Part shown: positions 5,093 to 64,000 of the stretch, piece after piece
How the letters are laid out: every line of letters starts with the position of its first letter
How positions within the stretch are numbered: the stretch's first letter is position 1
DNA from: Candidatus Argoarchaeum ethanivorans
GTDB lineage: Archaea; Halobacteriota; Methanosarcinia; Methanosarcinales; EX4572-44
Direction of reading: 5' to 3'
NCBI GenBank assembly: GCA_905067555.1
Contig: CAJHIS010000002.1
Location: 3,900-67,899 of the forward strand
Length of the DNA: 64,000 nucleotides
Made by a program: the position numbers and the translations under genes
Notes under the pieces: generated by a model
Databases searched by the model: none
What the model saw: only the letters and a program-made list of their open reading frames with translations
What the model was told of the DNA's origin: nothing

Positions 5093-6343
5093 TTATTTTT
5101 TTCTCTTTTTATATAATACAATTCCAACTACCAGAGCCGCCGCTATAATAATTACTATTGGAAGCAGTAGCGATGTAGATGATTCTTTTGCCGGACAAAC
5201 TACCAGTTGTGCTGTTCGTGAGAATAATACAACGGTGTCCTTGTTTGTCTCAACTCCCCGCAGTTCCACATCAAGGAGGTATTTTTTTGGAGGTGCATCT
5301 TCTTTGACCTGCACGCGTATCAACGCTTCACCACTTTCTCCCGGTTTAAGTTTTCCTATGAAGTCTGATTTTTCATCAAAATCAAACGGTTGTGTCGAAT
5401 CCTTGAACACGCGAAGGCTTGCTGCATCAACTTCCTCGCTTCCAGTGTTTTTAACGTTGATTAGAAGACTTACGTATGTGCCAGGATATACTTCTGCCGG
5501 GCTTGTTTTTACTGATTCTATCACCAGATAGGGTGAGCCTTTAATTGGAATGTTAAGAGGCAGGAGTTTTGTTCTGTACTGGTTGTCTTCATCGTCATCT
5601 TCTTTGTAAGTGATGGTGATTGTGGCATTATACTCACCTGGTTGAAGTCCTTCCGCTGTGTCGATGTAGAAGTATGCAGTTTTACTTTCACTTTCATTGA
5701 TTGTGCCAAGTGCATCTTCATCAGAGTATGCATAGCTTGCATCAAAACCTTCTGGCAAAGAGAGCGCTATCTTCACGTTCTCTGCATCTTCACTTCCTAT
5801 ATTTGCAATGTCAACTTTGAGTAATGCTTCATCTGTATCCTGCACGAGGCGTTCCGGTGAGGTACGAAGCGCTCCGATTGTAAAATCCGGTTTGCTTGGG
5901 TCTACGTAAAGTGTGAAGTATTTTTCAGTATAACCCCCGCTGCCGTCATTCCAACGCAGGCTTACATTATGTTCGCCTTTAAGAGCATCACCTGCCACCT
6001 TGAGCTTGTAGTGAAGCACATAGTACTCTTCCATTTCATTGCTTGGAACAACTCTGCCAAGACTTTTTTTTGGACTATCTCCTGCCTCGAAGAGAAATGG
6101 ATAGCCTGCATCGAGGTAGAATTCAAGTTCATCGATCGTTCCAATCTTGGTTACAACAACCCTCCAGCGAAGGTCAAGGTATTTACCAGAGTCTGCCGGG
6201 TCAGGATCCTGGTTCATAAGGTACACGTGGACAGTGCTTCCAACTTTCCCAGTAATTGGAGTGCTTTCTGCCGGTAGAGCAAGAATGCTCATGCAGAAAA
6301 CCAGTACAAGGATTGTTAATATTTTGTTTAATACTTTTTTCAT
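5093..6343 (-). CDS. Cell-surface protein with repeated CARDB/S-layer-like beta-sandwich domains (COG1361-like), signal peptide and C-terminal TM anchor
   Basis: 416 aa with an N-terminal signal sequence (MKKVLNKILTILVLVFCMSILALPA) and repeated motifs such as ...V.N.GSE.A.NV. The C terminus is hydrophobic followed by KKRKK. It is the last gene of an operon with two RND-type exporter halves. Confidence 0.65.
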   Translation of the reverse strand: MKKVLNKILTILVLVFCMSILALPAESTPITGKVGSTVHVYLMNQDPDPADSGKYLDLRWRVVVTKIGTIDELEFYLDAGYPFLFEAGDSPKKSLGRVVPSNEMEEYYVLHYKLKVAGDALKGEHNVSLRWNDGSGGYTEKYFTLYVDPSKPDFTIGALRTSPERLVQDTDEALLKVDIANIGSEDAENVKIALSLPEGFDASYAYSDEDALGTINESESKTAYFYIDTAEGLQPGEYNATITITYKEDDDEDNQYRTKLLPLNIPIKGSPYLVIESVKTSPAEVYPGTYVSLLINVKNTGSEEVDAASLRVFKDSTQPFDFDEKSDFIGKLKPGESGEALIRVQVKEDAPPKKYLLDVELRGVETNKDTVVLFSRTAQLVVCPAKESSTSLLLPIVIIIAAALVVGIVLYKKRKK

Positions 6344-15610: not shown

Positions 15611-15638
15611 CAATCTTGTGAACTCTCGTGGTTTTTTT
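15611..15638 (+). repeat. 10-bp-phased CTNGTG motif cluster, site 2 of 4 (caatcttgtg aactctcgtg gttttttt)
   Basis: Same unit as at 4127, 31361 and 49681. It lies about 120 bp upstream of glyS and is followed by a T7 run. Confidence 0.55.
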
Positions 15639-15757
15639 ACATCGGCTCGAAATACATACCTGAAACCAAACATCTGGCAACCATGATTTTCTGTGTTGCG
15701 TAACTGTTAAATTGGTTTCGGTGTTAGTGGGTGTTATTCATGAGGTGCTGTGTATCT

Positions 15758-29602: not shown

Positions 29603-30853
29603 TTATATGCCTGTGTGGTATCGAAGTATTGCAGCAATTCCACCAAAGGCATTTAGTAGTTGCTCTCCCTCTTCAAAGTCTGCTGATATAAACACTACTT
29701 CTGTACCCATCTGGTCGGAAATTACAGAGAGTTCTTCCACCATATCAACAGCCTGTGTTATTTTTGTTGCGCTTTTGCATTTGCTGCATGGAGGTGTTTC
29801 TATTTCCTGTTTCCCTGGTTTTCTGGCGTATGTTTTTTTCTCCTCGTGTTTGCATACATCACAGACCATGGTAATTCTTATTTTTTTCAGATCCTCTGAT
29901 AGAAGCAGTGTCTGGACTGCCCCCATTTCAAGGTTCTTTCGTACATGTTCTTCCCCGTATGTCGCAGATCCTTTATCTTTTACCAATTCTTTCATGAAGT
30001 TTTGCATGTATTGTTTTTCTTTTATAATATCGAGTCCCTCGAGGATGTCCTGTGCATTTTCAAGCAGTTCATAGAGCCCGGACTCGTCTGTGTACGATGT
30101 GTCGACAAGTCCAAGAATTTTTTGCTGCAGTTCGTGGTGAAGATATTCTCCATGTTCGAACTCCTCTTTTGTGGGAGATGGTCCCCCTATGATAATACCT
30201 TCAAGATCATGGTGATCTACTGTTAGGAATACACTATTTGCCTTATCCCCAATGCGGGTGTAAAACTCGTTGATAGCTATCAGCCGCAGTTGTTGAAAAC
30301 GGTGTGCGCTCTGCCCGCCTTTTCGTTGTTTGCCAGGAACATTTGATGTGAGGCTTGCAGATGCTTCGATGCGTTTACCATGCAAAAGCCCTATATTTGC
30401 CTCTCGCCTGTCAAGTACAAGTAATCCATAGATCCTCTTATCTTCCAGCATTTCTTCAAGCGTCTGCAGGTAGAACTCTGAATTGCAGTGATATTTATAG
30501 GAAATAAGTGGTTCTGGTGGTTCAATGATTGTTGTTTGCATATCTGTTTTGTTTGCCCCGATATCTATAGCCCCTGTAAATATGACAAAGCCGTTTTCTG
30601 GTGCTCTTTGTATATATTTAAGTCTCGAGAGTAGAGAATCAATAGCACTTTGCACGTTTCCGCGTGTGAGGCGTGATTTAATATTACTTGCCTGTCCATA
30701 TTCATCTCTGAGCTGTGATGTTACATCTGAAATCTGTTTGTCGTATGGTATGTAAAGAGAAATCAGTTCTGTACCTCTGCCGTGTTTCTCTCTTAGTTCT
30801 TCGAGTTGTTTTTTAAATTCGTATTTTTTATGAGCATCTACCATATATATCAC
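29603..30853 (-). CDS. prf1: Peptide chain release factor aRF1
   Basis: NIKS motif (ASNIKSR) and GGQ motif (KGGQSAHRF). An alternative start is ATG 30844. Confidence 0.92.
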   Translation of the reverse strand: MIYMVDAHKKYEFKKQLEELREKHGRGTELISLYIPYDKQISDVTSQLRDEYGQASNIKSRLTRGNVQSAIDSLLSRLKYIQRAPENGFVIFTGAIDIGANKTDMQTTIIEPPEPLISYKYHCNSEFYLQTLEEMLEDKRIYGLLVLDRREANIGLLHGKRIEASASLTSNVPGKQRKGGQSAHRFQQLRLIAINEFYTRIGDKANSVFLTVDHHDLEGIIIGGPSPTKEEFEHGEYLHHELQQKILGLVDTSYTDESGLYELLENAQDILEGLDIIKEKQYMQNFMKELVKDKGSATYGEEHVRKNLEMGAVQTLLLSEDLKKIRITMVCDVCKHEEKKTYARKPGKQEIETPPCSKCKSATKITQAVDMVEELSVISDQMGTEVVFISADFEEGEQLLNAFGGIAAILRYHTGI

Positions 30854-30859
30854 TGTAAA

Positions 30860-31587
30860 TTAAACAAACCTAATACATGACTTTCGGGTATCCGGATTCT
30901 GCTGCCAACTCGATTGAGACAAAACATCTACATGCCAAATTTTATAGAGTGGCAATAAGGATCGCTGATATCCATTGTGTTCAATATGCAAAGACCTTTA
31001 CCTAAGTTTATCCATCAACTCTGGCTCTTTTGGATTCATCTCTGATTCCATTCTTTTCTCATCATTGGCAATAAAAGCAACGCCCCAGGGATGGAAAATC
31101 GATTCGAATAGTGGCTACAATTCAAATTTTTCATGATCCATAATTACCTCTATTTTCAAGAGTGGCTTTTCCAGTTTCGCTTTGAGTTGTGTTATTTGTT
31201 TATGCCCTTTAATCTATTTTGGGTACAGAGGTGCCTGTGGAAGCGGTCTACTAATGGCAAAAAATCCAAGCCACTCTCGACGCTATGGTTATTTAGCATG
31301 TTCACAAATTAGGTAAACTATTCACTGGGCGTTCCCTGAAACCCGATTCATATCGCTGTTTTCTTGTGGAAATCTGTGTAATCTCGTGGTTAGTTTGAGC
31401 CAGACAAATCTAAAACCCACAACTTAATCTTGTGGGAGCTAAACATGTACCATTTTTTTATTTATACAAATATCTCTAATGGAAATCAAGGGGTCCCAAG
31501 CAACATCGTTAATAAGCATTATTTCTATTTCAGTTCTGCAAACAACAGGATGATTGGTGTTTTTGGTATGTTCTTGAGGTCGTTTAA
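30860..31587. other. Candidate replication origin (oriC) in the 730-bp non-coding region upstream of orc1/cdc6
   Basis: Four copies of A(G/T)AGTGGC (about 30948, 31110 and 31161 direct; about 31266 inverted). The mini-ORB-like element ttcttgtggaaat lies at about 31361, with related GTGG elements. An A/T-rich stretch, ccatttttttatttatacaaatat, lies at 31450-31473. The region adjoins cdc6. Confidence 0.45.
31361..31395 (+). repeat. 10-bp-phased CTNGTG motif cluster, site 3 of 4 (ttcttgtgga aatctgtgta atctcgtggt tagtt)
   Basis: Same unit family as at 4127, 15611 and 49681. It lies about 195 bp upstream of cdc6. Confidence 0.55.
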
Positions 31588-32820
31588 ATGGCTGTAGTAA
31601 ATAGTATATTCGAAAAATTTCTCTCCAATGTTCAAATCTTTGAAAACAGGGAAGTGTTGCGTCACACATATACTCCTGAACACCTGCCTCACCGTGATGT
31701 ACAGGTGGAAAGCCTTGCTGCTATTCTGGTTGCCGCTCTTCGAAAAGATACTCCGTCAAATGTTTTGATCTATGGCAAGACTGGAACCGGGAAAACAGCT
31801 GTGACAAAGTATGTGGGAATGGAGCTTGAGAAAAGCGGTGAAATTCATGGAGTCCCTTGCTATGTTATTTATATAAACTGTGAAATCGTTGACACACAGT
31901 ACAGGCTGCTAGCGCATCTTGCAAGGCACTTTGACAAAGACATCCCTATGACTGGTTGGCCAACAGATCAAGTGTATGCTGAGTTTAAAGAAGCTCTTGA
32001 TAGTGAAAAAGCAATCGTTATTGTCGTTTTGGATGAGATTGATAAACTCGTTAAAAAGGGAGATGACGTATTATATAATCTTTCCCGGATAAACGGGGAT
32101 CTGCATAAAGCTCGCATGGCTATTATTGGAATCTCCAATGATTTAAATTTCACTGAATTTTTAGATCCAAGAGTTAGAAGCTCGCTTGGAGAAGAGGAAA
32201 TAATTTTTCCCCCGTACGATGCCAAACAGATAAAAGACATCTTGAGTCAGCGCGCTGTTATGGCATTTAAGACAGGAGTTCTCGAAGAAAATGTCATACC
32301 ACTGTGTGCTGCTTTTGCCGCACAAGAGAATGGTGATGCACGCCGTGCTCTTGATCTACTTCGAGTATCTGCTGAACTGGCAGAACGTGAAAAATCATCC
32401 ATGGTACGGGAAGAGCACGTGAGGGCAGCCCATGAAAAAATAGAACTTGATAGAGTTGCTGAAGTGGTATGTACTCTTCCAACCCAGTCAAAGCTTGTGC
32501 TACTTTCAGTATTGAAATTGGTTGAGGGTGGGGGGAATCGTTTCATTACTGGTCAGGTGTACCATACATATTGCAAGATGTGCTTACAGATCCAAATGGA
32601 TGTCCTGACTCATCGTCGTATTACCGATCTGATTTCAGAACTGGATATGCTTGGCATTATCAACGCGATGGTTATAAGTAAAGGCAGATATGGTCGTACC
32701 AAGGAAATTTCTTTGAGCACCCCTCTTGAAAGTACCATGAAAACACTCTTCAAGGATTACAGGCTGCAACCATTAATCAACTTTAAAGCACCTGTGGTAG
32801 CACAGACGAAATTTTATTAA
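31588..32820 (+). CDS. cdc6: Orc1/Cdc6 replication initiator
   Basis: 410 aa with Walker A GKTGTGKT, Walker B VVLDEID and a C-terminal winged helix. Confidence 0.92.
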   Translation: MAVVNSIFEKFLSNVQIFENREVLRHTYTPEHLPHRDVQVESLAAILVAALRKDTPSNVLIYGKTGTGKTAVTKYVGMELEKSGEIHGVPCYVIYINCEIVDTQYRLLAHLARHFDKDIPMTGWPTDQVYAEFKEALDSEKAIVIVVLDEIDKLVKKGDDVLYNLSRINGDLHKARMAIIGISNDLNFTEFLDPRVRSSLGEEEIIFPPYDAKQIKDILSQRAVMAFKTGVLEENVIPLCAAFAAQENGDARRALDLLRVSAELAEREKSSMVREEHVRAAHEKIELDRVAEVVCTLPTQSKLVLLSVLKLVEGGGNRFITGQVYHTYCKMCLQIQMDVLTHRRITDLISELDMLGIINAMVISKGRYGRTKEISLSTPLESTMKTLFKDYRLQPLINFKAPVVAQTKFY

Positions 32821-32827
32821 ATAGTTA

Positions 32828-33096
32828 ATTTTTTAAAAACGTATAGGAAAGTATAAACACACTTCATTTTCTTGCTATTGAAATTCGATACATGACTTGC
32901 TGCACTCGATTGCTTCACAATCGAGAACTAAAAGCTACCTGTTATTTTCTACACAACGAAGTTGTGTAGTGCTTGCGTAATCAAGAATCAGAGGTTGTCG
33001 ATAATTCTGCGAAAGCGAAGTTATGCAGTGCTTCTTGTAATCGAGAGTTATTTCCACGCATGGATTGCGTGGTTCTGCGAAAGCGAAGTTGTGCAG
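32828..33096. repeat. Composite repeat element: T-run plus cgtataggaaagtataaac box plus at least 6 stacked hairpins
   Basis: The first ~90 bp (32828-32915) are closely similar by eye to 39754-39838. Hairpins lie at 32905-32925, 32949-32969, 32972-32985, 33007-33028, 33054-33072 and 33075-33096. It sits between convergent cdc6 and the signal peptidase gene. Confidence 0.85.
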
Positions 33097-39576: not shown

Positions 39577-39753
39577 ATGATGGCAGGTCAGTATGGAATT
39601 TGTGCCATCTGCGGAACAGTCGCACCGCTGCACACATGCCCACTTTGTGGCAGACTTGTATGTAGTAACTGCCTTACAGCAGAGGGGATATGCCTCTGGT
39701 GCAGCAGGGGCAGAATGATACAGCAATACAGGCTGAAAAATAGCGAATTCTAA
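39577..39753 (+). CDS. Small Cys-rich zinc-finger protein (58 aa)
   Basis: Hand translation gives MMAGQYGICAICGTVAPLHTCPLCGRLVCSNCLTAEGICLWCSRGRMIQQYRLKNSEF. It falls below the apparent length cutoff of the ORF track. Confidence 0.5.
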   Translation: MMAGQYGICAICGTVAPLHTCPLCGRLVCSNCLTAEGICLWCSRGRMIQQYRLKNSEF

Positions 39754-39905
39754 TTTTTTTAAACGTATAGGAAATTATAAACGCAACAACACTCTCTTGC
39801 TATTGAAATTCGATACATGACTTACTGTATTCGATTGCTGCATAATCGAGAGTTATTTTCACACACGAAGTGTGTGGTTCTGCACAACGAAGTTGTGCAG
39901 TTTTT
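39754..39905 (+). repeat. Composite repeat element: T7 run, cgtataggaaattataaac box, three stacked hairpins and a terminal T5 run (candidate sRNA gene or MITE-like element)
   Basis: Hairpins at 39830-39850 (type B), 39860-39876 (cacacacgaagtgtgtg) and 39881-39899 (type A), then ttttt. It is homologous to 32828-32925 and to 12863-12933. Confidence 0.8.
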
Positions 39906-50437: not shown

Positions 50438-50490
50438 TAGGCGTTTTAAGCTGATGTAAAAAAACCACAAAATTGCAGGGAGATTGACAC

Positions 50491-50590
50491 CTGCACAACT
50501 TCGTTGTGCAGAGATAACTAATAACTCAAACGGTGATGTTTTAACAGTAACTATCAACAATTACACGTGTTGTGCAGAGATAACCAATAA
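50491..50590. repeat. Hairpin repeat (type A) plus a duplicated gttgtgcagagataac..aataact half-copy
   Basis: tgcacaacttcgttgtgca at 50491-50509, and a second half-copy at 50568-50590. Confidence 0.8.
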
Positions 50591-50639: not shown

Positions 50640-51779
50640 TCACCTCAGCATATATTCATCAATATTCTTTTCCACCATTTCTCTCTTTCTTCTATGCTCT
50701 TTGAGATAATTATTAACTTTTTCTATGAAATATTCTTTAAGTTCTCCTGTTAACATGCTTCCGTCTCTGTAATCCTGTGCTATTTGTGCAAGTTTCCTGT
50801 CGTCTTCCTCAAAGAAATACTTTAAATAAAGAAAAGATACGTCTACATCCGGGTCGCCTCCTTTTTCCCTGTGTTCTTTGATGCTTGGCTGTCCACCCGA
50901 AAATGCATATTTATGTACCTTACTGGCAACTGCATCTTCATCATCACTCAGCCATATAGCATTATTTCCACTGGAACTCATTTTCGGCCCTTCAAGCCCT
51001 GGTGCCAATTTTTTGTGAATTGCAGCCGGCTTTTGAAAGCCAAACCTCTCTGCTATATCTCTTGTCAGCCTCATAAATGGATCCTGGTCTATCCCTATCG
51101 GCACTAACGTTTGATGGGACCCCTCTATAAATTGTGGGTATAGTATGTGTGCTGCCTGCATCGCTGGATAAAATACCCATCCAATGTTATTTTCCGGTTT
51201 CAATCCAAAAACAGCTTTTGCTGTAGAGTATGTGATCTTCTTGGCAACCTGTGAAGCGTACCTGTATATTTTTGTGTGCTCGAAATCCTTGTGAACGATC
51301 GTTTTCTCCGGATCAAACCCCATTGCCAGTATATCCAGTATATTATCATCTGCAAATCTTTCCACATCCCCAACGTTTAGATACTCCTTTATATAGAATT
51401 TCTCGTCGTCTGATACAGGTATGTACACCGTGCATCCATACGCATCCTGGAAGTATTTTGGTATAGCATATAGAGTCAAATGTCCTATATGCATTCTCTC
51501 GGAGGGCCCTCTCCCACTAACTACAGAAACCTTTTCTTTGTTATCGTAAGCATTAAGCCATTTATCCAGATCCCTGTGAGAAAAACACATACCCCTTTTA
51601 ACAGGAGGCGGCAGCGGCAGCTTCAATCTTGAAAACAGATGGTTATCTATAGACTGGGTGCCAAATTCTTCTATCAACCTATTATAGTCAATATCCCCCT
51701 CGACTTCCCATGGAGTTATAGACATATAATTAGCATCCTCTCCGTTCTGAAGAACAGAGAATTCGTGAGGTTTTTCCAT
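50640..51779 (-). CDS. trpS: Tryptophan--tRNA ligase (archaeal/eukaryotic type)
   Basis: 379 aa with HIGH-type MHIGHL, KMSSS and N-terminal PWEVEGDIDYNRLIEEFG. Confidence 0.88.
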   Translation of the reverse strand: MEKPHEFSVLQNGEDANYMSITPWEVEGDIDYNRLIEEFGTQSIDNHLFSRLKLPLPPPVKRGMCFSHRDLDKWLNAYDNKEKVSVVSGRGPSERMHIGHLTLYAIPKYFQDAYGCTVYIPVSDDEKFYIKEYLNVGDVERFADDNILDILAMGFDPEKTIVHKDFEHTKIYRYASQVAKKITYSTAKAVFGLKPENNIGWVFYPAMQAAHILYPQFIEGSHQTLVPIGIDQDPFMRLTRDIAERFGFQKPAAIHKKLAPGLEGPKMSSSGNNAIWLSDDEDAVASKVHKYAFSGGQPSIKEHREKGGDPDVDVSFLYLKYFFEEDDRKLAQIAQDYRDGSMLTGELKEYFIEKVNNYLKEHRRKREMVEKNIDEYMLR

Positions 51780-59524: not shown

Positions 59525-61612
59525 ATGTCTGCACATTCATCACCACAGAAGTGGAAAGAATTCTTAAAGTCATCCTACAAAGATGAAATTACCAATCTTG
59601 CTGAAGAGTATCCTGATGTTAGAAGTCTTAGTATATCTTTTTTTGACATAGAACAGTTCGATCCGGAACTGGCAGATGAACTTCTAAACTTCCCGGATGA
59701 GGTGCTAAGAGACGCCAAACAAGCACTACTTGATATTGGTGATACGAAAGGAGTTGATTTTTCAAAAGCTCACCTGCGAGTAAGAGATCTTGCATCACAC
59801 GTTCGGATACGCAGCATTCGAAGTAATCATATCGGAAAACTGATTGCGGTTGAAGGGTTGATTCGAAAAGCTACTGAGGTACGCCCAAAGATCACCCGTG
59901 CAGTATTCCACTGCCCTTATGAACACGAGACAGTGGTTATGCAGGGTGAGAAATTCGTAGAGCCTTATGAATGTGATGATGCCAACTGCTCCCGAAAAAA
60001 AGGACCTTTTATTCTCTCGAAAGAAAAATCCACTTTTCTGGATGCACAAAAGATTCGCATACAGGAATCACCGGAAGGTCTTAGAGGTGGTGAGCAGCCG
60101 CAGACACTCGACGTTCTTGTAGTTGATGACCTTGCTGGAATAACTGCTCCCGGGGATCGCATAATTATTACAGGGGTGCTTCGCTCTTACCAGCGCGTAA
60201 ATTACAACACCAAAACCACATTCTTTGACATAGTGCTTGATGGCTTATCCATCGATGTGGAAGACAAGGAATTCGAGGATATCGTACTATCATCTGAAGA
60301 CATTGAAATGATAAAAACTCTTGCCGCTGACACCGGGATTTATGAGAAAATGATACGAAGCATAGCTCCGAGCATCTATGGCTACAGTGAAGTAAAAGAA
60401 GCAATATCCCTTCAACTGATGAGCGGTGTATCCAAGAAACTTCCGGACGGCTCACGGATCAGAGGTGATATTCATATACTGCTTATCGGAGACCCTGGCA
60501 TTGCAAAATCACAGCTTCTACGATACACTGTCAAAATTGCACCCCGTGGTATTTATACAAGCGGTAAAAGCTCAACATCGGCAGGGCTTACAGCCGCAGC
60601 AGTAAAGGATGAATTCGGAGATGGACGATGGACTCTTGAAGCCGGTGCATTAGTACTTGCAGATAAAGGAATTGCAGGTGTTGATGAAATGGATAAAATG
60701 AAGCCTGATGATCGTGCATCACTGCATGAAGCAATGGAACAACAAACCATAAGCATAGCAAAGGCAGGAATAATGGCGACCTTGCAATCCCGCTGCTCGC
60801 TGCTTGGTGCTGCAAACCCGAAATATGGACGCTTTGACCAGTATGACAACATCGCCAAACAAATAAACATGCCGCCAACACTTCTGTCGCGATTCGACCT
60901 GATATTTATTCTTACGGATAAGCCAACGATAGAACGAGACACGCAAATATCCAATCATATTTTAAAAGCACATTACGCGGGTGAACTTAGCATGCAGAAA
61001 GAACACGTCCCAAACTCAGGCATAACCAGTAAGCAGATAGAACATGCAATGAAAGTAATACAGCCAGAAATAGAGCCTGAACTGATGCGAAAATATATTG
61101 CCTACGCCAAACGCAACATTTATCCTCTTATGAGCGATGATGCCAGGGAAAAAATCATCAACTTCTATCTTGGACTCAGGAAACAGGGGGAAGACCCCAA
61201 TTCACCAGTTCCGGTTACTGCAAGGCAGCTTGAAGCTTTAGTAAGACTTGCAGAGTCGAGTGCACGTATCCGCCTGAGCAATGAAGTAAATGTAGATGAC
61301 ATAGAACGAGTGATACGCATAGTAACCACAAGCCTTGAGCAGGTGATGACAGACCCGGAGACTGGTATGCTTGATGCCGACATTATTTCTGTTGGTACAA
61401 GCAAAAGCCAGAGAGACAAAATACACATACTTAGAGATATAATAAGAGAGCTTCAGCATGCACATGATGGTGTAGCACCCCGTGAAGATGTGATAGAGCA
61501 TGCAGAAGAACAAGGTATTAATAGAGACAAGGTGGAAGACATACTATCAAAACTTAAGAACTCGGGAGAAATATACGAGCCTAAAAATGGATACGTTAAA
61601 ATATCGCAATAA
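59525..61612 (+). CDS. mcm: MCM replicative helicase
   Basis: 695 aa with Walker A GDPGIAKS, Walker B DEMDKM, the arginine finger SRFDL and a zinc motif in the N-terminal domain. Confidence 0.93.
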   Translation: MSAHSSPQKWKEFLKSSYKDEITNLAEEYPDVRSLSISFFDIEQFDPELADELLNFPDEVLRDAKQALLDIGDTKGVDFSKAHLRVRDLASHVRIRSIRSNHIGKLIAVEGLIRKATEVRPKITRAVFHCPYEHETVVMQGEKFVEPYECDDANCSRKKGPFILSKEKSTFLDAQKIRIQESPEGLRGGEQPQTLDVLVVDDLAGITAPGDRIIITGVLRSYQRVNYNTKTTFFDIVLDGLSIDVEDKEFEDIVLSSEDIEMIKTLAADTGIYEKMIRSIAPSIYGYSEVKEAISLQLMSGVSKKLPDGSRIRGDIHILLIGDPGIAKSQLLRYTVKIAPRGIYTSGKSSTSAGLTAAAVKDEFGDGRWTLEAGALVLADKGIAGVDEMDKMKPDDRASLHEAMEQQTISIAKAGIMATLQSRCSLLGAANPKYGRFDQYDNIAKQINMPPTLLSRFDLIFILTDKPTIERDTQISNHILKAHYAGELSMQKEHVPNSGITSKQIEHAMKVIQPEIEPELMRKYIAYAKRNIYPLMSDDAREKIINFYLGLRKQGEDPNSPVPVTARQLEALVRLAESSARIRLSNEVNVDDIERVIRIVTTSLEQVMTDPETGMLDADIISVGTSKSQRDKIHILRDIIRELQHAHDGVAPREDVIEHAEEQGINRDKVEDILSKLKNSGEIYEPKNGYVKISQ

Positions 61613-63145: not shown

Positions 63146-63224
63146 CTCTCATTTTTTTTGACACATTTGTTTTAATAATTTTAATAAATTGTATAATATA
63201 TTATATTGTGTAGTATATTATTTT

Positions 63225-63263
63225 TATAGTGTTTATTTATAGTGTTTATTTATAGTGTTTATT
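63225..63263. repeat. 13-bp tandem repeat (tatagtgtttatt x3) flanked by a ~35-bp direct repeat
   Basis: Read directly from the sequence. The flanking copies tttgttttaataattttaat(a/g)aatt... lie at 63166 and 63263. Confidence 0.85.
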
Positions 63264-64000
63264 TTGTTTTAATAATTTTAATGAATTATACAGCATATTA
63301 TTCTTGAGTGATTAAATTTGCCTATATTTATAATATATTATTGCATCATCAATTGATTGGGTGTAAGGTAGTATATTAGACTTGTTCGTATACCTTAACT
63401 TAAGTAAAATATATAATAAGTTTGTAAGCAAAAAATTACAGGCTATATGGAATAGAACAGTTTCAGTTTGATGAATAATTTTAACTGTTGTTCTCCACAC
63501 CTCTTTGCCTGTTGAATGGTGATGTTGTCTGCTGATTAGTATGTATTCTTATAGTCATTGTAATAAATTTGTTTGCTGAGAACCTGTTATTTGGCTAAAA
63601 ATAACAGAATAATATTTTTAATAATGTTCATTCATGTATACTATGTAATAATTATTGAAAGATTGGCTATATTAGCTATATGTGGCTATTTATAACTGAA
63701 AGTAATAAAATAAAAACAAATTATTACTAAATAATGTTGCAGAAAATACTGGGAAATTGAGACTGAATATAATACAAAATATTAATTTTATAACATATAA
63801 CTATTTAAATTTTTAATATTATAAATTTCATATTAAATATATAATCTTAAAATATTTATTCTGTATTGAAGTAAAATCTGAGAGTTTGACATTTAGCTTT
63901 GAGTCTTGTATGATCTCCGAACAATATATCTATATGAGATAGCTCAATCCAAGGTAACTAACAAATAATGATTTACCAAGAACTGCATCATTTTTCAGGA

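Follow-up and report, generated by a model that had tools for sequence, protein, structure and literature searches.

The locus studied here raises the question of whether the long spacer upstream of an archaeal initiator gene still acts as a replication origin, and which of its sequence elements the initiator would recognise. The spacer lies in a 64,000-nt (64-kb) stretch of DNA, the whole of which was analysed and which is called the window below. The source organism is an ethane-oxidising GoM-Arc1 archaeon, and the Cdc6 protein of the window shares 98% identity with its counterpart in Ca. Argoarchaeum ethanivorans. The spacer comprises 734 nt (30854-31587) and is flanked by two divergent genes:

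29603-30853, minus strand: aRF1, a peptide chain release factor gene (ORF list; Pfam eRF1_1/2/3, E 1e-24 to 1e-43)
31588-32820, plus strand: orc1/cdc6 initiator gene (Pfam Cdc6_C, Cdc6_lid, AAA_22)

In the ORF list, aRF1 starts with a GTG at 30853, with an ATG in frame at 30844, and a Shine-Dalgarno-like GAGGT precedes orc1/cdc6 at 31576-31580. Further replication and division genes (FtsZ, PriS, Gins51, XseA) are found near the spacer, and the MCM gene is located at 59525-61612. The spacer directly adjoins orc1/cdc6, as is the case for an Orc1/Cdc6-dependent oriC. Canonical euryarchaeal origins exhibit, in addition, ORB/mini-ORB repeats that flank an A/T-rich DNA unwinding element (Pyrococcus abyssi oriC, PMC1904270; Haloarcula hispanica oriC1, PMC3936714; Methanomicrobia origins in DoriC/Ori-Finder 2, PMC4164010).

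A first-pass annotation, made from the sequence of the window, had proposed a candidate oriC here, based on the usual archaeal origin position and on four copies of A(G/T)AGTGGC. The position argument holds in an evolutionary sense, as the orthologous cdc6 of relatives adjoins a canonical multi-ORB origin, of which the spacer keeps one ORB. The repeats on which the proposal relied do not hold, and the full ORB at 31475-31494 had been overlooked. We consider that the locus is probably a vestigial oriC, in which the surviving ORB would serve mainly as an Orc1 operator on the cdc6 promoter.

The spacer had been described as an ORF-free region of 730 bp. According to the ORF list, no ORF of at least 60 aa lies entirely inside it, and an Rfam search of the whole window at gathering thresholds returned four tRNAs only, with no match in the spacer. 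The description nevertheless misses a decayed gene, which takes up nearly half of the spacer (about 332 nt out of 734) and which harbours most of the A(G/T)AGTGGC copies (AKAGTGGC hereafter):

30870-31201, minus strand: decayed hypothetical-protein gene (about 207-240 aa) with its 3' flank (tblastn, conceptual translation, DNA identity)
30946-30953, plus strand: AGAGTGGC, copy 1; its minus strand encodes C-H-S at the C-terminus of the pseudogene; changed in both L001 and L003
31108-31115, plus strand: ATAGTGGC, copy 2; in the pseudogene, where it reads *-P-L-F (homologs Q/S-T-L-F)
31159-31166, plus strand: AGAGTGGC, copy 3; in the pseudogene, where it reads K-P-L-L (homologs K-P-L-S); mutated in L003
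31270-31277, minus strand: AGAGTGGC, copy 4, inverted; upstream of the pseudogene remnant; mutated in L001 and L003

The minus strand at 30928-31201 carries a long frame with two stop codons, whose conceptual translation matches 12 hypothetical proteins, with E values down to 1e-25; these are about 80-240 aa long and come from Methanosarcinales metagenomes. In a tblastn search, one of these homologs (P0001) aligned in three pieces: residues 10-29 to 31201-31142, residues 138-183 to 31141-31004 with a TAG in frame, and residues 183-207 to 31005-30931, past a frameshift near 31005. The internal deletion amounts to about 108 codons in the window, 22 of which are kept in L001 and L003. At the DNA level, 30870-31142 is 84% identical over 274 nt to positions 958-1230 of L037, which comprise an intact gene and its 3' flank. 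Neither the conceptual pseudogene protein nor the intact family members matched a Pfam family, and the genomic context of the intact members (L037-L040) gave no clue to their function; a link to a transposase is suspected. The spacer also contains short ORFs of 42-59 aa, of which the 59-aa one on the plus strand (31133-31312) was rejected as coding, as it runs antisense to the pseudogene and is broken by stop codons in L003.

The 3' flank of the pseudogene family is itself well preserved, window positions 30870-30891 being 90-94% identical to the flanks in L038-L040, and it ends about 20-25 nt from the aRF1 start codon. Since it reaches so close to this start, the aRF1 promoter may be built partly from the inserted element.

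As the first-pass annotation had stated, four AKAGTGGC copies are present, three direct and one inverted, and each string that it quoted was found where it had been placed. The 64 kb contain seven copies of the motif, where 2.44 would be expected, and four of them fall within 332 nt (30946-31277), a length in which about 0.03 would be expected; the motif was picked post hoc, after the data had been seen, and the enrichment has to be read accordingly. The local clustering is real. The three direct copies all lie within the pseudogene, in three unrelated codon contexts. In the two comparison genomes with Cdc6 proteins 98% (L001) and 94% (L003) identical, the four 8-mers have accumulated 2 and 4 substitutions over 32 positions, respectively, for a background of 4.4% and 10.9% in the surrounding pseudogene, and only copy 2 is unchanged in both. 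In these sister genomes, the AGAGTGGC copies change at the background rate; they belong to the gene fragment and its flank and are free of selection. No copy occurs upstream of cdc6 in L002 or L004-L008. The repeats are thus not kept among cdc6 orthologs, even at 94-98% Cdc6 identity, an outcome that the first-pass annotation had listed among its refuting conditions. The segment that the copies had been said to bracket is not A/T-rich (0.53-0.60 AT).

The element that does resemble an initiator site stands closer to cdc6, where it is followed by a putative promoter:

31475-31494, plus strand: ORB with G-string, TCTAATGGAAATCAAGGGGT; 17 of 20 positions agree with the Methanomicrobia ORB; top PWM match in the window
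31495-31514, plus strand: 14-nt spacer with BRE-like AGCAACATCG, followed by TTAATA (31509-31514); putative BRE/TATA of cdc6, 79 nt before the ATG

The Methanomicrobia ORB given by Ori-Finder 2, TCCA[GC]T[GT]GAAA[CT][AG]A[AT]GGGGT, was derived from DoriC origins (PMC4164010). With up to 3 mismatches, this pattern has two matches in 64 kb against 0.08 expected. A PWM trained on 82 ORBs from Methanoperedens and Methanothrix loci ranked 31471-31498 first in the whole window, with 23.8 bits (training range 11.9-38.1). The ORB TCTAATGGAAATCAAGGGGT stands 113 nt before the cdc6 ATG and exhibits 0-1 substitutions in L001, L002, and L003. Every GoM-Arc1, Methanoperedens, and Methanothrix locus examined has a plus-strand ORB at a distance of 80-130 nt before cdc6 (orthologous ORBs in L001-L004; in Methanoperedens L005-8 and L030; in Methanothrix L009-L030, L033, and L035; and in L041-L045). 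Conservation among orthologs thus extends to this proximal ORB and not to the AGAGTGGC repeats. Taken on sequence grounds, 31475-31494 appears to be a genuine ORB, a predicted Orc1 site and the positional ortholog of the cdc6-proximal ORB of relatives. An ORB adjoining cdc6 is an already known type of feature, and the one in the window is degenerate.

No second full ORB, either with up to 3 mismatches or by PWM, was found in the spacer or within 30 kb on either side of cdc6, so that the locus holds one full ORB and not the two or more of an inverted pair. The other of the two pattern matches, at 50956-50975, falls within an ORF of 379 aa (50640-51779, minus strand). It has a perfect mini-ORB core, TTCCAGTGGAAAT, at 50963-50976, with no G-string or neighbouring sites, and is probably due to chance.

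The most regular property of the surviving ORB is its distance from TTAATA. An ORB followed by TTAATA or a close variant is present in 37 of 38 orthologous loci, where the spacing is exactly 14 nt in 35, 14 nt by eye in L004, and 13 nt in L045. TTAATA is the sole block besides the ORB that is conserved across genera, the module being common to GoM-Arc1, Methanoperedens, and Methanothrix, and the distal ORBs of relatives are not followed by it. In L002, L004, and L043, the module is found with no full-ORB neighbours. The relatives are all metagenome-assembled, so that repeats may be misassembled; the proximal 165 nt, however, are supported by four independent assemblies. TTAATA and the preceding BRE-like A(C/G)CA(T/A)AA would constitute the cdc6 promoter, with a TATA box at 31509-31514 and a transcription start predicted near 31540 (about 31535-31545). 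The ORB G-string is located 14 nt from the putative TATA box, which is a suitable position for an operator. As this spacing is fixed at 14 nt, bound Orc1 and the transcription pre-initiation complex could well stand in a stereospecific relation, which would amount to autoregulation of cdc6. The strictness of the module in Methanotrichaceae, Methanoperedens, and GoM-Arc1 points to a hard-wired coupling of Orc1 binding to cdc6 transcription.

As for the remaining origin parts, relatives whose Cdc6 is 70-82% identical combine three direct ORBs with an inverted one and with an A/T-rich unwinding region of 200-300 bp. In Methanoperedens (e.g. L005), the inverted ORB lies at about -500 relative to cdc6, followed by about 200 bp with up to 0.87 AT and by direct ORBs at -275, -240, and -100. 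In L041 (82% Cdc6 identity), an A/T-rich stretch of about 300 bp separates an inverted ORB at -637 from direct ORBs at -279, -240, and -125; the layout is similar in L042 (81%) and L044 (74%). In contrast, only one full ORB is found in the window, in L001-L003, in the Ethanoperedens-type L004 and L043, and in L045. The distribution of full origins and single ORBs indicates that the multi-ORB state is ancestral and was reduced in more than one lineage. In L002 (96% Cdc6 identity), the upstream gene is different and homology to the window begins only at about 31424-31453; therefore, only the A/T tract, the ORB, and the promoter travel with cdc6. The pattern of erosion in GoM-Arc1, together with the invariant ORB-TATA spacing, is modestly new.

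In both Ethanoperedens-type loci, the single ORB is immediately preceded by CATGATTATTAATTA (3760-4000 in L043, 3860-3910 in L004). L004 also carries an inverted mini-ORB, GATTTCCAT, about 17 nt from its ORB, a reduced layout unlike that of the window. A literature search for a described Ethanoperedens origin found none.

Several weaker elements are located between the pseudogene and the ORB:

31358-31374, either strand: mini-ORB-like element (core-only PWM; no G-string), including ttcttgtggaaat (31361-31373) of the first-pass annotation
31380-31389 and 31426-31435, plus strand: AATCTYGTGG direct repeat pair (block 31380-31435), the sole exact matches in the window
31412-31423: inverted GTGG element between the two AATCTYGTGG repeats
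31450-31473, either strand: 24-nt A/T-rich tract, abutting the dyad end of the ORB; conserved in L001-L003

The description of ttcttgtggaaat as mini-ORB-like is reasonable if it is taken as a weak mini-ORB. With the core PWM, the plus strand (TTCTTGTGGAAATC) reached 7.5 bits and the minus strand (TTCCACAAGAAAAC, 31358-31371) 10.7 bits, for a training median of 22. The element takes ranks 6 and 15 among all core-PWM positions in 64 kb, and ranks 4, 6, 9, and 15 all fall in 31358-31487. The element is unchanged in L001 and L003 and absent from L002. The minus-strand mini-ORB and the plus-strand ORB are 102 nt apart, each with its dyad end pointing towards the other. When the mini-ORB was locally aligned to the mini-ORB that follows the -237 ORB of L042, 18 of 500 shuffles reached the same score, which is consistent with possible descent from it; beyond the mini-ORB, the distal spacer exhibits no significant similarity to the origins of L041, L042, L044, and L005. 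With up to 2 mismatches, the mini-ORB core is not enriched across the window (41 matches against 40 expected), and single core matches therefore carry little weight.

The A/T-rich tract that the first-pass annotation had placed next to cdc6 is real and may be the edge remnant of an ancestral unwinding region, but it is only 24 nt long. The whole spacer has an AT content of 0.62 for a window mean of 0.60, and its richest 60-nt stretch reaches 0.73, compared with 0.85-0.95 in Methanoperedens and Methanothrix origins. There is thus no A/T-rich unwinding element in the spacer, no 60-nt segment of which reaches 0.75 AT. Cumulative GC skew across the 64 kb has no extremum at 31 kb, which, in so short a window, does not argue against an origin. 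A regression of GC3 skew that controlled for gene orientation gave t = -0.85 at 31.2 kb, which is again a weak test over 64 kb only.

The cttgtgg/ctcgtgg cluster of the spacer had been assigned to a motif family also found upstream of three unrelated genes. CTYGTGG occurs 17 times in the window against 10.5 expected, a number reached in 5 of 100 shuffles, and five of seven other copies checked outside the spacer region lie within genes; such a family is hardly distinguishable from chance. TCTYGTGG is found three times within 75 nt of the spacer, out of six copies in 64 kb, and L002 keeps the second AATCTYGTGG repeat only. An intergenic AATCTTGTGAACTCTCGTGGTTTTTTT at 15612-15631, upstream of a gene starting at 15731, resembles the AATCTYGTGGTT pair at 31380 and 31426; this likeness could reflect a site for a common regulator or chance.

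How these observations are best explained depends on how much of an origin is left. Because the inverted full-ORB pair and the A/T-rich unwinding region are both absent, a canonical origin is doubtful, and in our judgement the locus has likely ceased to be an efficient origin of this kind. In the explanation that we favour, a vestigial oriC, an ancestral Orc1/Cdc6-dependent origin would have been eroded, with the loss of two more direct ORBs, the unwinding region, and the inverted ORB, and these parts would have been replaced by the decayed gene fragment (30870-31201) and by sequence of ordinary composition. Orc1 bound at the surviving ORB would sit against the BRE/TATA and set cdc6 transcription, and this promoter role would be the reason why the proximal ORB alone was retained after the other origin parts had been lost. 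Weak firing may still take place via the ORB and the weak mini-ORB at 31358-31374, residual origin activity being a tentative possibility that we rate clearly below the loss of efficient function. The chief competing explanation goes further, in that the locus would still be the active chromosomal origin in a minimal form, with Orc1 on the ORB (31475-31494, plus strand) and on the inverted mini-ORB (31358-31371, minus strand), melting of the tract at 31450-31473, and loading of MCM between the two sites. The inward-facing dyad ends, 102 nt apart, have the correct geometry for an inverted pair, four of the best core-PWM positions of the 64 kb are gathered here, the mini-ORB is unchanged in L001 and L003, and the adjacent gene is the ortholog of the cdc6 that stands beside canonical origins in relatives; the window contains no other ORB cluster, and a 24-nt A/T tract beside the ORB might suffice for melting. 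Nevertheless, the mini-ORB reaches less than half of the training median and has no G-string, it is absent from L002 despite 96% Cdc6 identity, the 102-nt interval is not A/T-rich except for these 24 nt, and no GC3-skew switch is detectable at 31.2 kb, weak as this test is. We regard a minimal active origin as possible and incline against it.

The two remaining explanations differ in what they make of the 20-mer. If the locus had no present connection with an origin and were a divergent promoter region with genomic debris, the 20-mer would be a transcription-factor site unrelated to Orc1. A single site at a fixed position relative to TTAATA and the missing unwinding region agree with such a view, which is nonetheless very unlikely given that, in relatives, the same motif is found in inverted clusters of several copies around A/T-rich regions and that it matches the ORB consensus derived from DoriC origins (PMC4164010). 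Least probable of all, to the point of deserving almost no credence, is the model of the first-pass annotation, in which the whole 730-bp spacer is an oriC and A(G/T)AGTGGC is a lineage-specific initiator-binding repeat placed around an unwinding segment. In its favour, four of the seven copies in the window are clustered, and AGTGG overlaps the ORB core CCAGTGGAAA. On the other hand, copies 1-3 belong to the pseudogene, all copies but one have changed in L001, in L003, or in both, at a rate no lower than the background, the motif is missing upstream of cdc6 in six further relatives, and the bracketed segment is of ordinary AT content.

Compared with canonical euryarchaeal oriC, the putative vestigial origin of the window shares the site directly upstream of orc1/cdc6, an ORB with G-string (17/20), a mini-ORB-like core, and an ORB dyad end that faces an A/T tract. 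It differs by its single full ORB, the lack of an inverted full ORB and of an extended unwinding region, and a spacer that is nearly half pseudogene. The origins of Methanoperedens and of the loci with 81-82% Cdc6 identity (L005-L008, L030, L041, L042) have an orthologous cdc6, an identical ORB-14 nt-TTAATA layout, and a similar spacer length (about 540-800 nt). Unlike the window, they also exhibit a minus-strand ORB (about -500 to -640), an A/T-rich stretch of 200-300 bp, and plus-strand ORBs at about -275 and -240, all three of which are missing here; the mini-ORB at -227 is possibly a relic of this upstream set. In bacteria, DnaA boxes in the dnaA promoter mediate autoregulation of the initiator, according to Braun et al. 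(1985) as cited in PMC3936714. The likeness lies in an initiator gene whose promoter carries a predicted site for the initiator itself, inside an origin or beside it; the protein family and the promoter type differ, and in the window the regulation is deduced solely from the 14-nt spacing.

A long spacer with repeats beside cdc6 is the usual endpoint of origin prediction in uncultured archaea, and the present locus is an example of how it can mislead: the visible repeats are debris of a dead gene, and the true ORB is a single degenerate copy. Related lineages that exhibit either a full four-ORB origin or a single-ORB relic form a natural series on the minimal needs of an archaeal origin, and the same series bears on whether origins move in slow-growing alkane oxidisers. 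A broader reading, which we consider unlikely, is that the cdc6-linked origin was dismantled at least twice independently in GoM-Arc1 (Argoarchaeum and Ethanoperedens lineages), leaving the promoter-coupled ORB, and that replication starts elsewhere or an ORB-cluster origin is dispensable. Origin-deleted Haloferax and Thermococcus reportedly do without an ORB-cluster origin. Within the window, the extremely A/T-rich, repeat-bearing region at 63146-64000, past the MCM operon, could be a candidate alternative start site.

This region lies directly downstream of the MCM-DUF7121 operon and runs past the end of the window. It comprises more than 850 bp free of ORFs, with up to 0.95 AT over 60 nt, and no other part of the window is as prone to unwinding. 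Its repeats include GTGTTTATTTATA, a 13-bp unit in three tandem copies (63223-63264), and a direct repeat of 39 nt, whose copies span 63166-63204 and 63263-63301; no ORB match was found within 63146-64000. Two public contigs with the same MCM-DUF7121 genes end about 105-125 nt past the DUF7121 gene, i.e. at the A/T-rich region.

Other dispersed elements were observed in the window and its relatives. An intergenic hairpin, CTGCACAAC-TTCG-TTGTGCAG followed by (A)GATAA, is present in one and a half copies in one spacer (50484-50515 and 50569-50590), and the same hairpin is found in L002 (3742-3770), directly upstream of the cdc6 promoter and at the synteny breakpoint. Past cdc6, the window is longer than L001 by about 145 bp (32927-33073). 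L001 itself has, downstream of its cdc6, an element of about 100 bp (5239-5340) that is 85% identical to 39751-39851 of the window, which suggests a small dispersed repeat.
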